The notes under the pieces are model-generated. The model searched no databases. It was not told the DNA's origin and saw nothing but the letters and a program-made list of their open reading frames with translations. DNA of 18,704 nucleotides from a virus, in IMG/VR virus record IMGVR_UViG_3300045988_087586; one strand, written 5' to 3'. A program made the position numbers and the translations under genes. Below are positions 1-18,704 of the stretch, one piece after another (the stretch's first letter is position 1; each line of letters starts with the position of its first letter).

Positions 1-336
1 TGGGAGGGGTGTGGGTTTGTGTGAAGATTTTCCCTTGTGGTTTTTTTTTATTGTGTGTTATTTTTTTTTGTTCTGTGTTGTGTGGTGTTTGTTGTGTTTG
101 GGTGTGTGTGTTAGATTTTTTTTAGTCCAGTTTGTCAATTTTTTTTATTGACACAATGTCAATGGTTGTATGTGCAATGTTTTTTATGTGCGTATTGATT
201 AACTGGGTTAACTCATGCTGTCTAATTATTGGTAGGTTACGGTTTTGTAACCGTAGTTTGCCGACCGGTAGGTAGGTGTCTTTTATTATCTTGCGTTCTT
301 TTGTTTTTGGGCGTGTCGTTGTTTTGTTTGTGTTAT
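1..336. repeat. Left inverted terminal repeat (ITR) of a linear protein-primed genome
   Basis: 1-318 is identical to the reverse complement of 18387-18704. There is a TT vs CC mismatch at 319-320, then 321-336 match again. All homopolymer runs (T9, T9, T8, T8, T6) were checked on both arms. Confidence 0.97.
133..163. promoter_or_regulatory. Cluster of three TGTCAAT/ATTGACA heptamers inside the ITR; includes an inward-facing TTGACA (-35-like) at 148-153
   Basis: TGTCAAT at 133-139, ATTGACA at 147-153 and TGTCAAT at 157-163 form two overlapping palindromes. No convincing -10 lies at 17 bp; the best is TGCAAT at 173-178. Function as promoter, operator or origin element is unresolved. Confidence 0.35.
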
Positions 337-370
337 GATAAAAATATCAACCACAAGGGAGGTAAACAAA

Positions 371-604
371 ATGAACACTATAATTGTTATCAACTGGGAA
401 CGTGATAATGTTACGGTTTCTTTTACTGATATTGAGGATATGGGCTACACGTTCGGCCTTGGTAAGGTCACTACCTTGAGGGGTGCAAGGGCTCGTGTTC
501 GTCGTGTGATGTCTGATCAGTATGGCATTGATCTTTCTCGTATGAAGCTTGAAAGGTCAACTAATGCTATTGACTATTTTCGTTCCAATCGTGTTGAGGG
601 CTGA
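371..604 (+). CDS. Small early protein, ITR-proximal paralog 1 (77 aa)
   Basis: ATG at 371 lies 9 nt after the SD AGGGAGG (355-361). The ORF-track start at 335 lies upstream of the SD. About 40% identical by eye to the next gene. Confidence 0.75.
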   Translation: MNTIIVINWERDNVTVSFTDIEDMGYTFGLGKVTTLRGARARVRRVMSDQYGIDLSRMKLERSTNAIDYFRSNRVEG

Positions 605-619
605 TTGAAGGTGGGCAAC

Positions 620-859
620 ATGAATGCTGTAATTGTTATCAGTTGGTGGGCTAGAACTGCTGTTGTTTTCTTCACTGATATTGATGATTTTTATATGCTG
701 GATATTGGGAAGAATAGAACTCTTAGGGGGGCGAAGTCTTACATTCGTAGGGAGCTATGCGGTAAGTATGGTGTCGCGCTTTCTCATGTTAAGACTGTGA
801 AAGATACTCCCTCTGTTACATTCCTTCTTTCTAAGCGTGTTAAAAAAAAGGAGCATTAA
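620..859 (+). CDS. Small early protein, tandem paralog 2 (79 aa)
   Basis: ATG at 620 follows GAAGGTGG (607-614). MNAVIVISW...FTDIDD...TLRGAK parallels MNTIIVINW...FTDIED...TLRGAR of the upstream gene. Confidence 0.75.
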   Translation: MNAVIVISWWARTAVVFFTDIDDFYMLDIGKNRTLRGAKSYIRRELCGKYGVALSHVKTVKDTPSVTFLLSKRVKKKEH

Positions 860-860
860 T

Positions 861-1091
861 ATGTGGTACTTTATTATCACCGATAATGGTTTTCAGGTGT
901 TTGAGATTCTACCCGACTACGTGAAGCCTAGTAGGCTGTTTTATACGAAATCTCTTAAGGATTCATTGGACGGTATATTGTCTCATATCCGCAGCGCTTA
1001 TGTCGGCATGGACGTGAACGTGGATATTGACAATGCCGCGTTTGACATGGATAGTACTATGGTCGGCATGGTTAAGGTGGTGCTGGTATAA
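861..1091 (+). CDS. Small acidic early protein (76 aa), unknown function
   Basis: ATG at 861 follows AAAGGAG (848-854). Tightly packed with its neighbours. Carries the shared Y-T-K-S-L-x-x-x-L-x-x-I motif (see findings). Confidence 0.65.
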   Translation: MWYFIITDNGFQVFEILPDYVKPSRLFYTKSLKDSLDGILSHIRSAYVGMDVNVDIDNAAFDMDSTMVGMVKVVLV

Positions 1092-1258
1092 TGGTTGGTA
1101 TGATTGTTGCCGTTTGCATTCTTTCCGCACTGTTTGTAACGATGGCTGCTATGGTGTTTTGCGAACTGCCGCGTGATTGGCGTGATACGTTTTGTTTTTT
1201 GGTCATGCTTGCTGTGAGCGTGGCTGTGGTTTTGGTTTTTGTTTTGAAAGGATTTTAA
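1091..1258 (+). CDS. 55-aa two-pass membrane protein (below the ORF-track size cutoff)
   Basis: My own translation: MVGMIVAVCILSALFVTMAAMVFCELPRDWRDTFCFLVMLAVSVAVVLVFVLKGF. It has two hydrophobic helices joined by a charged loop. Its ATG overlaps the upstream stop (TAATG at 1089-1093), and it ends 2 nt before the next ATG. Confidence 0.6.
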   Translation: MVGMIVAVCILSALFVTMAAMVFCELPRDWRDTFCFLVMLAVSVAVVLVFVLKGF

Positions 1259-1260
1259 TT

Positions 1261-1506
1261 ATGTCTTATCGTGATGAGAAAGTCGCTGTATTCTCGTCTC
1301 AGCACTTGGGCGGTGATGTCGAATTATGGTATTGTTCTCATAGTCAGTCATACAGGTTGAAGTATGATGTGGCGTTTTACTCGCCGGATGGCCTATGCTC
1401 TGCCGTTGCGTTAGTGTCATATGATGCCACTGATTATGATCAAGTCGTTGACGTGCTGATTGATGCTATCGATATTGCGCGCACGCCCTTGCTGGATAGG
1501 GATTAG
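1261..1506 (+). CDS. Small acidic early protein (81 aa), unknown function
   Basis: ATG at 1261 follows GAAAGGA (1246-1252). The ORF-track TTG start at 1192 would overlap the 55-aa membrane ORF. Confidence 0.65.
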   Translation: MSYRDEKVAVFSSQHLGGDVELWYCSHSQSYRLKYDVAFYSPDGLCSAVALVSYDATDYDQVVDVLIDAIDIARTPLLDRD

Positions 1507-1508
1507 TC

Positions 1509-1712
1509 ATGTATTTTCGCGGCTGGATACACTTATGGACTTGTAAGGATTGCTTGTATGCTGATATGTATTGGCGATTACGTGCTCTTTGGGCGGAAGT
1601 GGAACGCAAGGGTGACGTTTTTACGCCGCCGAAACGGTGTCCGAGTACGGACTTGTGGTTTGACATGTGGTGGTTGGGTGTTGAGTCCGGTGAAGAAGGA
1701 TTGGAGTTTTAA
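1509..1712 (+). CDS. Trp-rich small protein (67 aa) with a CxxC motif, unknown function
   Basis: ATG lies 2 nt after the upstream stop. Contains 7 Trp and 3 Cys (CKDC...C). Confidence 0.55.
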   Translation: MYFRGWIHLWTCKDCLYADMYWRLRALWAEVERKGDVFTPPKRCPSTDLWFDMWWLGVESGEEGLEF

Positions 1713-1714
1713 CC

Positions 1715-1891
1715 ATGTATGAAACTTTTGTGGCTCTCGCCTATCTTCGCCACAATGATAAGCCCCCTATTGAAATCGGGTATGCCACCTCATATGATAA
1801 GGCTGCTGACCTGATTCGTAAGTGGGCGAAAGTCTCTTCGCATACGAAGAATATCTCATATTTTAAGGTGGAGAGGAGATATTATGTTTAA
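1715..1891 (+). CDS. 58-aa small early protein (below the ORF-track cutoff)
   Basis: My own translation: MYETFVALAYLRHNDKPPIEIGYATSYDKAADLIRKWAKVSSHTKNISYFKVERRYYV. It fills an otherwise empty gap and overlaps the next start by 8 nt. It shares the ATSYDKAADLI motif with the 1261 gene product (ATDYDQVVDVLI). Confidence 0.6.
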   Translation: MYETFVALAYLRHNDKPPIEIGYATSYDKAADLIRKWAKVSSHTKNISYFKVERRYYV

Positions 1892-2405
1892 CCGTGGAAA
1901 CGATAAAACACCTATCTATCGTATGAGAAGCTTTAATGACGAAATCATGGATTCTCCCCGTATCGTCAAGGCTACGAGGGGGCGAACTCGTGAGCTGAAT
2001 CTGAAACGCTATGATAAGGGGTATGGTGATTGGGAGTCATGCTGCCGAGCTGTCACCATGCTGTGCGAATTGTGGCGCGAAGGTGCGCCGAGTCCGTGGT
2101 TTACCCAGGCAATAATTGTCGTGTCACAGATTTGCGGCAGCATGTGCATAGGAGACGGACTCGCCGCCGCATTGAGTCGCACGTATGACGTGGAATATTT
2201 GGACGGTACTATTAATCCGCCTAATTTGATTGCATGGTGTGCCGTCTGCGCCGTCAAGGGGGGCACGTCGTATGATTGTTGCACGGTTTTTGATAATCTG
2301 CAAGCTCAGAATCTTATTATCGCAGTGTTTAAAAATTTTGACAGATTGGATACAACGCGATATAATGATGCTGACTTGCAAAAAATCTTATCACAAGGGA
2401 GGTAG
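1884..2405 (+). CDS. Cys-rich early protein (173 aa), unknown function
   Basis: ATG follows GGAGAGGAG (1870-1878). Has 9 Cys in CC, CxxxC and CxxC arrangements. I recognise no family. Confidence 0.7.
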   Translation: MFNRGNDKTPIYRMRSFNDEIMDSPRIVKATRGRTRELNLKRYDKGYGDWESCCRAVTMLCELWREGAPSPWFTQAIIVVSQICGSMCIGDGLAAALSRTYDVEYLDGTINPPNLIAWCAVCAVKGGTSYDCCTVFDNLQAQNLIIAVFKNFDRLDTTRYNDADLQKILSQGR

Positions 2406-2410
2406 TCTGT

Positions 2411-2725
2411 ATGGCTAGAACCAAAACCGATATTTTCCGCACAAGAGTGTATGCCGTACTCAAAGGTATGGAATTGGTAGACGGCGATTTTATGGAATCC
2501 GAGCACGTCATTGATGGACGGCTTAAGGACGTGCGAGCATATTCGATTCGTGCAAAGAAACTGTTTCCAAATTTCATCCCACGTTCTATTCATATTTTTT
2601 CGCAGAAAGTCTCGATGAATGAGGAAACTTTTTACAAGTATGCCACATTTGAGGAACCGCAAGAATGGAACCCCGAAGAACACACAAAACGACACGCCGA
2701 AATTGAAAATAATGACGGTATGTGA
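2411..2725 (+). CDS. Putative phi29 p6-like double-stranded DNA-binding (origin-remodelling) protein
   Basis: SD AGGGAGG at 2395-2401. It is 104 aa, sits directly upstream of the SSB as in phi29 transcription order, and has an acidic C-terminal tail. By eye it resembles recalled phi29 p6 (..VDGD.. vs ..VDGE..; ..EETFYKYAT.. vs ..VEKFLEVAT..). Confidence 0.45.
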   Translation: MARTKTDIFRTRVYAVLKGMELVDGDFMESEHVIDGRLKDVRAYSIRAKKLFPNFIPRSIHIFSQKVSMNEETFYKYATFEEPQEWNPEEHTKRHAEIENNDGM

Positions 2726-18033: not shown

Positions 18034-18064
18034 AAAGCCCCCAGGCTTATCACCTAGGGGCTTT
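18034..18064. terminator. Bidirectional terminator between the convergent endolysin gene and the right-end gene
   Basis: AAAGCCCC..(AGG/CCT)..GGGGCTTT with T-rich flanks on both strands (plus ACTTTATT; minus TTTTCTT). Confidence 0.7.
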
Positions 18065-18067
18065 ACT

Positions 18068-18331
18068 TTATTCGTCATCGCCGTTATCAATCGAAATGAC
18101 ATATTTGCGACACGGACGGCCTTTCTTAGACAAACACCGCACAGTTTCGACATAGTCATAGTCGACACTCAACATACTTTCAATAACTGCCGAAAGCGCT
18201 GATTCGAACGTAGTAACATCGTCATCAATAAGGCCATTATTAACAACAGTACCAGTGTACACATTTTCAATGCACACCTTGTAACGATTATCCGCTTCAA
18301 TTTCGATAACATAAGCGTTAAGGTTAATCAT
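18068..18331 (-). CDS. Right-end small acidic early protein (87 aa), diverged paralog of the left-end genes
   Basis: The only leftward gene. Its 5' leader and first codons are recognisably homologous to the 337-420 region on the left (TATCAACnnCAAGGGA; GTTATC...GATAAT.GTTAC). The protein shares VI.....DN and VTT(L/F) with the 371 gene product. Confidence 0.75.
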   Translation of the reverse strand: MINLNAYVIEIEADNRYKVCIENVYTGTVVNNGLIDDDVTTFESALSAVIESMLSVDYDYVETVRCLSKKGRPCRKYVISIDNGDDE

Positions 18332-18368
18332 TTTATTTTTCCTTTCCCTTGAAGTTGATAGTTACGCT

Positions 18369-18704
18369 ATAACACAAACAAAACGGCGACACGCCCAAAA
18401 ACAAAAGAACGCAAGATAATAAAAGACACCTACCTACCGGTCGGCAAACTACGGTTACAAAACCGTAACCTACCAATAATTAGACAGCATGAGTTAACCC
18501 AGTTAATCAATACGCACATAAAAAACATTGCACATACAACCATTGACATTGTGTCAATAAAAAAAATTGACAAACTGGACTAAAAAAAATCTAACACACA
18601 CACCCAAACACAACAAACACCACACAACACAGAACAAAAAAAAATAACACACAATAAAAAAAAACCACAAGGGAAAATCTTCACACAAACCCACACCCCT
18701 CCCA
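18369..18704. repeat. Right inverted terminal repeat (ITR)
   Basis: Reverse complement of 1-336 with a single dinucleotide difference (18385-18386 GG vs left 319-320 TT). The window ends exactly at the repeat. Confidence 0.97.

Follow-up and report, generated by a model that had tools for sequence, protein, structure and literature searches.

Zones next to terminal repeats are a frequent site of phage host-takeover genes, and an 18,704-bp stretch of viral DNA (IMG/VR record IMGVR_UViG_3300045988_087586; the whole stretch is referred to below as the window) carries six tiny open reading frames (ORFs) near its two ends, g371, g620, g861, g1261, g1715 and g18331c. The question raised by this locus is whether the six are diversified copies of a single small fold, as a sequence-only reading had proposed from a shared motif and an apparent likeness to the N-terminal domain of HicB-type antitoxins (UPF0150), or something else. 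Our analysis indicates that the six ORFs are real genes which, with high confidence from sequence comparison, represent five families (A to E), of which A, B and C are variable cassettes and the other two, D and E, are conserved backbone genes. The best explanation as a whole, to which we assign a probability of about 0.6, is that of five families in which A, B and C are cassettes driven by the inverted terminal repeats (ITRs) and D and E belong to the early backbone, with the functions that we infer below.

The window is a complete linear genome, with Bifidobacterium phage BP1 as a relative (82% identity over 80% of the length) and BD811P2 as a more distant one. Because its products include a protein that binds single-stranded DNA (SSB), a putative terminal protein, a type-B DNA polymerase, capsid, portal and tail proteins, a packaging ATPase, a holin and an endolysin, the window is a phi29-like, protein-primed Bifidobacterium podophage. 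The + strand carries every gene but g18331c. Among related genome ends, the polymerase probe retrieved 80 left-end loci, and the probes from the endolysin and the packaging ATPase retrieved 106 right-end loci; the endolysin alone proved a weak right-end probe (26 loci), and the packaging ATPase worked. Family clustering took in 1,879 end ORFs from 188 loci, the joining of left and right loci yielded 62 merged genomes for the survey of gene order, and presence was counted over 83 left ends. In addition, g371 and g18331c were queried one by one against a collection of 5.8 billion proteins.

All six ORFs lie where they had been read from the sequence, with a total of 1392 nt. On the + strand of the left arm, g371 (371..604; 77 aa, isoelectric point (pI) 9.4) is the first gene and the first copy of family A, followed by its tandem paralog g620 (620..859; 79 aa, pI 10.0) as the second copy, by the variable cassette gene g861 of family B (861..1091; 76 aa, pI 4.5), and by two conserved backbone genes, g1261 of family D (1261..1506; 81 aa, pI 4.3) and g1715 of family E (1715..1891; 58 aa, pI 9.5), the 3′ end of the latter overlapping the start of g1884. 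The first and only right-arm gene is g18331c of family C (18068..18331, − strand; 87 aa, pI 4.3, net charge −8.5). The earlier impressions that several of the proteins are acidic and that members stand first at both genome ends are borne out: three of the six are acidic, with net charges of −4.4, −8.3 and −8.5, and the remaining three are basic; on the inner side of each ITR, the first gene is g371 on the left arm and g18331c on the right. A Shine-Dalgarno-like sequence precedes each of the six ORFs, and all six have homologs in related phage contigs, in left- and right-end loci. The ratios of nonsynonymous to synonymous substitution rates (dN/dS) are 0.31 for A, 0.15 for B, 0.24 for C, 0.22 for D and 0.12 for E; as comparators, a spurious overlapping ORF family gives 0.85, and g1884, g2411 and g1509 give 0.10, 0.05 and 0.27, respectively. 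Since the six recur in relatives and their families show dN/dS of 0.12–0.31 versus 0.85 for the spurious ORF, the sequence evidence marks them as real genes under purifying selection.

In BP1 (PQ571273), gp20–gp25 are direct homologs, with two copies of family A (91% identical) and with B, D and E in the same order; family C is absent from this genome. The BP1 homologs are labelled only “hypothetical protein” and are not discussed in the BP1 paper (PMC12694917). Family A as a whole is narrow: it comprises 139 clusters at 90% identity, every one of them on phage contigs; among 1.84 billion representatives it yields 19 clusters at 50% identity, none of them longer than 86 aa or fused to another domain.

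Sequence comparison separates the six products into five families. In an all-versus-all BLASTP search, g371 and g620 form the only similar pair (41% identity over 76 aa, E 6e-19); they share full-length similarity as well as one cluster and homolog set, and together make up family A, whereas g18331c shows no BLASTP similarity to either of them. Clustering assigns 40 members to family A (from 29 left-end loci, plus one right-end copy), 54 to B, 41 to C (38 right-end and three left-end), 74 to D and 73 to E. Profile–profile comparison with hhalign gives no significant family pair on the locus-derived alignments, the highest probability being 3.5% (B–C), and probabilities below 1% on the larger alignments of the five families; adding secondary structure derived from AlphaFold2 (AF2), in local and global modes, brought no gain. 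Thus, what had been described as one expanded family of six resolves by BLASTP, clustering and profile comparison into five, and of the supposed paralogous trio g371, g620 and g18331c only the first two are alike. Under single-linkage clustering B and C merge, but the link is one hybrid protein in locus L137 and not homology. Families F33, F34 and F35 were discarded as antisense or overlapping-frame artefacts.

Gene order in the 62 merged genomes divides the left arm into a variable block, made up of F30, F31, C, zero to two copies of A, B, F40 and F23, and a backbone that runs in the order g1091 membrane protein, D, g1509, E, g1884, g2411, SSB, terminal protein and polymerase. On the right arm, the first position is taken by C, F21 or F30 (right-end loci L083–L188). 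Family A is present at 29 and B at 54 of the 83 left ends, while D and E are each present at 73, and tandem A–A pairs occur in 10 of the 62 merged genomes. Median pairwise identity is 0.37 for A, 0.55 for D, 0.76 for B and 0.74 for E, with 0.87–0.88 for the polymerases of the same genome pairs. The alternative right-arm first genes are unrelated to one another and all encode strongly acidic proteins, with a median net charge of −7.5 for C, −11.9 for F21 and −16.3 for F30. By these sequence comparisons, A, B and C are patchy accessory cassettes that diverge fast and occupy a recombination-prone zone directly inside the ITRs. The sequence-only reading had taken g1261 and g1715, too, for diversified accessory copies; both are instead conserved backbone genes. 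A tandem duplication of family D is seen in locus L060 (1173-1415 and 1420-1644).

The ITRs themselves span 1..360 (+) and 18345..18704 (−) of the window, two arms of 360 nt that are 97% complementary. The inner end of the left ITR holds a TG-N-TATGAT promoter-like element (about 331-339), a leader and the ribosome-binding site of the first gene, and the right ITR holds an equivalent promoter-like element and leader ahead of g18331c. The inner 100 nt of the ITR are conserved across relatives, including the TG-N-TATGAT element and the ribosome-binding site AAGGGAAAGGAAA. In six relatives (L037, L048, L008, L012, L047 and L050) the ITR stops 2–4 nt beyond the ATG of the first gene on both arms; because the repeat ends past the ATG and its inner part is conserved, two different ORF bodies share one set of expression signals. 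In the window, about the last 40 nt before the ATG differ between the arms. Just past the stop codon of g18331c, between it and the convergent endolysin gene, lies a terminator-like hairpin (18035..18048, −), which is a pattern match only.

The boundary of the repeat shifts among relatives, and with it the genes that it includes. The ITR measures 522 nt in L016 and 401 nt in L015 and in each case includes the whole F30 gene (66 aa, net charge about −16), so that F30 stands at both genome ends because the ITR engulfs it. In the L066/L137 contig, the repeat extends 89 nt into gene B and thereby yields a B(1-30)/C hybrid at the opposite end: the ORF at L137:6190-6420 (−) joins, in frame and with its length kept, B residues 1–30 to the C-terminal part of C. 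Its junction, “...MFHAT|LSFRRALE”, coincides exactly with the point at which the 119-nt exact inverted ends of the contig stop; their length equals a MEGAHIT k-mer size, which is probably what an assembler leaves at a true repeat boundary. Representatives of family A include more hybrids, namely F21/A, F31/A, A/unknown and unknown/A (P0264, P0273, P0263 and P0266), and the F21/A hybrid P0264 (L189:453-677) begins right at the ITR edge. Families are also found at the respective other end, with C at the left ends of L014, L025 and L077 and A at the right end of L098. One divergent-phage contig carries two Cys-rich C-type paralogs, one per end and 41% identical (L077:434-667, +, and L187:6406-6651, −). 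These arrangements suggest a mechanism in which the ITR would supply the promoter-like element, the leader and the ribosome-binding site, and the start codon as well in close relatives; any ORF body that abuts the repeat would therefore be expressed as the first gene of its arm. Gene conversion that shifts the ITR boundary may then duplicate first genes, swap families between ends and form in-frame hybrids. For linear protein-primed phages, such a repeat with recurrent hybrids would offer a simple route to shuffle the first-expressed genes, which we regard as a modest side finding.

The shared motif on which a single family had been built, [YV]-x-T-[TSKD]-[LYF]-x-x-[AVS]-x-x-x-[IV], matches as written only one of the six proteins, g1715. 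A looser core, T[TSKD]?[LYF]xx[AVS]xxx[IVL], which was fitted post hoc, matches five of the six; it is found in 3–7% of shuffled sequences and occurs three times in the remaining 5,092 residues of the proteome. Its frequency is above chance, yet what it describes is in essence a Ser/Thr N-cap leading into an amphipathic helix, and such a shared “motif” is no evidence of common descent. Family alignments show that the most conserved residues within each family sit in the region of the motif helix. In g371, the helix (codons 476..523, +; residues 36-51) is Arg-rich, is capped by VTTLRGARARV and has T35, L36, R42, R44 and R45 conserved; in g18331c, the helix (codons 18170..18208, −; residues 42-54) is capped by VTTFESALSAV and has F42, A45, L46 and E51 invariant.

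AF2 models, computed with alignments for families A and C, show what these helices are embedded in. The g371 model (predicted local distance difference test (pLDDT) score 94.6) comprises strands 2-8, 13-18 and 25-29, helix 36-51 and strands 59-63 and 67-75, and the g18331c model (pLDDT 88.7) strands 2-12, 16-21 and 25-30, helix 42-54 and strands 58-67 and 73-81. The proposal that short strands are followed by a helix-initiating motif thus holds for the modelled A and C, whereas a weak reading of the sequence places the helix of D at the C-terminus. Sequence reading together with Chou-Fasman prediction weakly suggests β-β-(β)-α-β-β for B, β-β-α-β-β for E and four strands followed by a C-terminal helix for D; on alignments, Chou-Fasman recovers the AF2 secondary structure at a three-state accuracy (Q3) of only 0.52–0.66. 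By the same sequence reading and crude prediction, the motif of g1261 would sit near the C-terminus with no strands after it.

A Foldseek search of the PDB with the A and C models returned nothing at E ≤ 0.001, the best E-values being 0.07 and 0.37. The nearest PDB entries to the C model are Hsp33, eS24 and geminivirus Rep, with query-based template modelling (TM) scores (TMq) of at most 0.38, and those to the A model are 6xyd (TMq 0.53–0.55) and uL23 (about 0.40); the two neighbour lists are disjoint. The structural neighbour Q4D6Q6 of the A model gave no lead on function. Against BFVD, the C model retrieves two sequence homologs and many small uncharacterised phage proteins at TM 0.45–0.54, among which the 75-aa A0A8S5QSL5, from a phage that also carries a C homolog, matches with a target-based score (TMt) of 0.54 and a probability of 0.93. 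The name “RNA polymerase Rpb2-like protein (Fragment)” given in BFVD to A0A8S5R8H4, an 81-aa homolog of family C, is likely a mis-annotation.

A HicB antitoxin is defined by a toxin-binding N-domain, a C-terminal ribbon-helix-helix (RHH) or helix-turn-helix (HTH) domain and a HicA partner (PMC6159526). The HicB N-domain and the window proteins are alike in small size, in N-terminal β-strands followed by a helix and in a G/T-rich turn before the helix; the HicB N-domain has no fifth strand, whereas the A and C models have one. No match to HicB/UPF0150 (PF15919, PF03681) was found in Pfam scans of the six proteins (E ≤ 1) or of 134 family members (69 of A and 65 of C; E ≤ 10), no HicB-related family in PHROG and NCBIfam scans of the six, and HicB is absent from the top 50 Foldseek hits of the A and C models in the PDB. 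Searches with PDB profiles for all five families returned nothing relevant, phi29 proteins included. The six proteins are single-domain, and the A and C models end in a β-hairpin with no RHH or HTH tail. In addition, the neighbouring g1091, g1509, g1884 and g2411 have no Pfam match, and the rest of the genome consists of replication, structural and lysis genes, with no HicA. Assignment of the six to HicB/UPF0150 is therefore not upheld by the family searches, the structure comparison or the gene neighbourhood. Family F31 (80 aa; e.g., L005:347-589), which is absent from the window, has a weak N-terminal match to a Sigma70_r4-like HTH (E 3.6e-4, below the Pfam cut-off), and its C-terminal “GTGDTIAEAVADAL” resembles UPF0150 more than anything in the window does.

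What, then, might these proteins do? Because A, B and C are patchy, fast-diverging and, as we infer, first expressed, and because they share their slots with other small acidic proteins, they fit host-takeover or counter-defence binders, a tentative assignment made by analogy that we hold with less than even confidence. The cassette proteins, each a single domain, would be produced as infection begins and would bind host factors so as to neutralise or redirect them; the acidic right-arm proteins C, F21 and F30 would be the best candidate inhibitors of DNA-targeting host enzymes, and for the Arg-rich family A nucleic acid or an acidic partner is a conceivable target. D and E, which are nearly universal and located in the replication module, thereby fit a phage-internal role and more likely serve replication or regulation.

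Several observations weigh against this account of five separate families with ITR-driven cassettes. The A and C models have an equal order of elements, β-β-β-α-β-β, with the motif at the helix N-cap, and structure models cover these two of the five families. The best local hhalign alignments of A–C, A–B and A–E all fall on the motif helix, with E-values of 0.07–0.11 from shallow profiles (Neff about 2), and in the A–C alignment A36 faces C42, so that the starts of the two modelled helices coincide; some families could thus conceivably share a very old common origin. A sigma-70 scan gave no strong promoter in the ITR, so that the early timing and the ITR promoter, an extended −10 element read from its conservation, are presumptive. 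The case for a counter-defence role consists of position, variability, charge and analogy, and the dN/dS values indicate purifying rather than positive selection.

These points bear on the alternatives to different degrees. That all six are diverged copies of one fold related to the HicB N-domain, acting as toxin or nuclease neutralisers, draws on the three N-terminal strands and the helix with a T-capped motif in the A and C models and on the best local alignments at that helix, but no two families are significantly similar, HicB is missing among the Pfam, NCBIfam, PDB-profile and top-50 Foldseek hits, the models carry an extra fifth strand, there is neither a HicA gene nor an RHH/HTH tail, and the helix of D appears, on weak evidence, to be C-terminal; we consider this reading very improbable. 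An ancient superfamily unrelated to HicB, in which A, B, C and perhaps E would share one β-β-β-α-β-β fold as ITR-driven effectors diverged beyond sequence recognition, would account for the equal element order and similar element positions in A and C, the alignment of their helix starts (A36/C42), the natural B/C hybrid that joins at the helix N-cap with its length preserved, and the match of A0A8S5QSL5 to the C model. It is nevertheless unlikely: profile probabilities stay below 1–3.5%, the A and C models retrieve disjoint PDB neighbours, and small α/β proteins converge on few topologies. The B/C hybrid, moreover, is not evidence of homology because hybrids such as F21/A and F31/A join clearly different architectures, for which reason its use as a sign of structural equivalence was dropped. 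Joining this ancient fold to the terminal repeats leads to a still more speculative and quite doubtful proposal, that the ITR, with its promoter, leader, ribosome-binding site and start codon, is a fixed socket for expression into which boundary shifts plug interchangeable small effector ORFs, with A, B, C and perhaps E as ancient variants of the one fold that keep up with host defences by diversifying and by forming hybrids at the helix N-cap; if true, it would amount to a compact, poxvirus-like terminal arsenal in an 18.7-kb phage.

A different kind of alternative concerns function rather than descent. The small proteins could be organisers of replication or transcription like phi29 p1, p6, p16.7, p17 and p4 instead of counter-defence factors. 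D and E agree with this, being nearly universal, placed between the membrane protein and the SSB, terminal-protein and polymerase genes, and, in the case of E, under low dN/dS (0.12), and the proteins of family A are basic and have a helix with conserved arginines; yet A, B and C are dispensable among close relatives with 87–88% identical polymerases, unrelated acidic proteins fill the same first-gene slot, and no sequence match to solved phi29 proteins was found. As an explanation for the small proteins in general, such a role seems to us rather unlikely, if plausible enough to keep in view. That the ORFs are non-functional debris of terminal recombination might be thought from the many hybrid and truncated forms near the ITR, but it is exceedingly improbable given dN/dS of 0.12–0.31 in all five families, conserved ribosome-binding sites and confident AF2 models for A and C.

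The early small proteins of phi29 (the UDG (uracil-DNA glycosylase) inhibitor p56, and p1, p16.7, p17 and p6) have about 55–130 aa and are encoded at the genome ends, with the right-end operon read inward from beside the terminus, and one of them, p56, is small and acidic and inhibits a host DNA enzyme (PMC4974454). The window is similar in being the genome of a protein-primed podophage of about 19 kb with small end-encoded proteins and inward right-end transcription. It differs from phi29 in that the phi29 ITRs are 6 bp, whereas those of the window are 360 nt and carry expression signals, in that its genes lie nearly all on one strand, and in that its families lack a sequence match to solved phi29 proteins. 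With T7 Ocr (gp0.3), C, F21 and F30 share, by analogy only, that each is the first gene from the entering end, small, strongly acidic and variable among relatives; Ocr, however, is an all-helical DNA mimic, while the C model is β-rich, and no similarity was found. The ITRs of poxviruses and linear replicons offer another parallel, since there, too, boundary shifts engulf, release and duplicate terminal genes and accessory host-interaction genes adjoin the repeat. The shifts of the window type cover hundreds of bases as opposed to kilobases in poxviruses, and in the window type the start codon marks the end of the repeat, so that two different ORF bodies are driven by a single promoter, leader and ATG.

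The five families are new members of a familiar class of phage early ORFans. To our knowledge, few lytic Bifidobacterium phages are in culture, and none of their early genes is annotated. The analysis provides a candidate list for host-takeover or anti-defence screens, in which the cassette families are A, B and C and, in relatives, also F21, F30 and F31, with the backbone families D and E set apart; the list matters because bifidobacteria carry many restriction systems.

Between and beyond the backbone families lie further small genes. The conserved early backbone opens with g1091 (1091..1258, +; found in 63 loci), a hydrophobic ORF of 55 aa with a grand average of hydropathy (GRAVY) of 1.83 with the look of a membrane protein of two segments; it might, speculatively, serve as a membrane anchor in the manner of phi29 p1 or p16.7. 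Between D and E, and outside the six, g1509 (1509..1712, +; 70 loci) is a Trp-rich backbone ORF with seven Trp and three Cys in 67 aa, and an overlapping frame (1558-1722) clusters with it, so that its frame is provisional. In BP1 (L001), gp17 (104 aa), the homolog of window positions 2411-2725, is named “DNA methyltransferase”, likely a mis-annotation. Positions 2338-2366 (+), which fall within the 3′ end of g1884, match the sigma-70 consensus perfectly (TTGACA-17 nt-TATAAT). The element lies just upstream of g2411 and of the SSB, terminal-protein and polymerase genes, and it may give the replication genes a strong promoter of their own.

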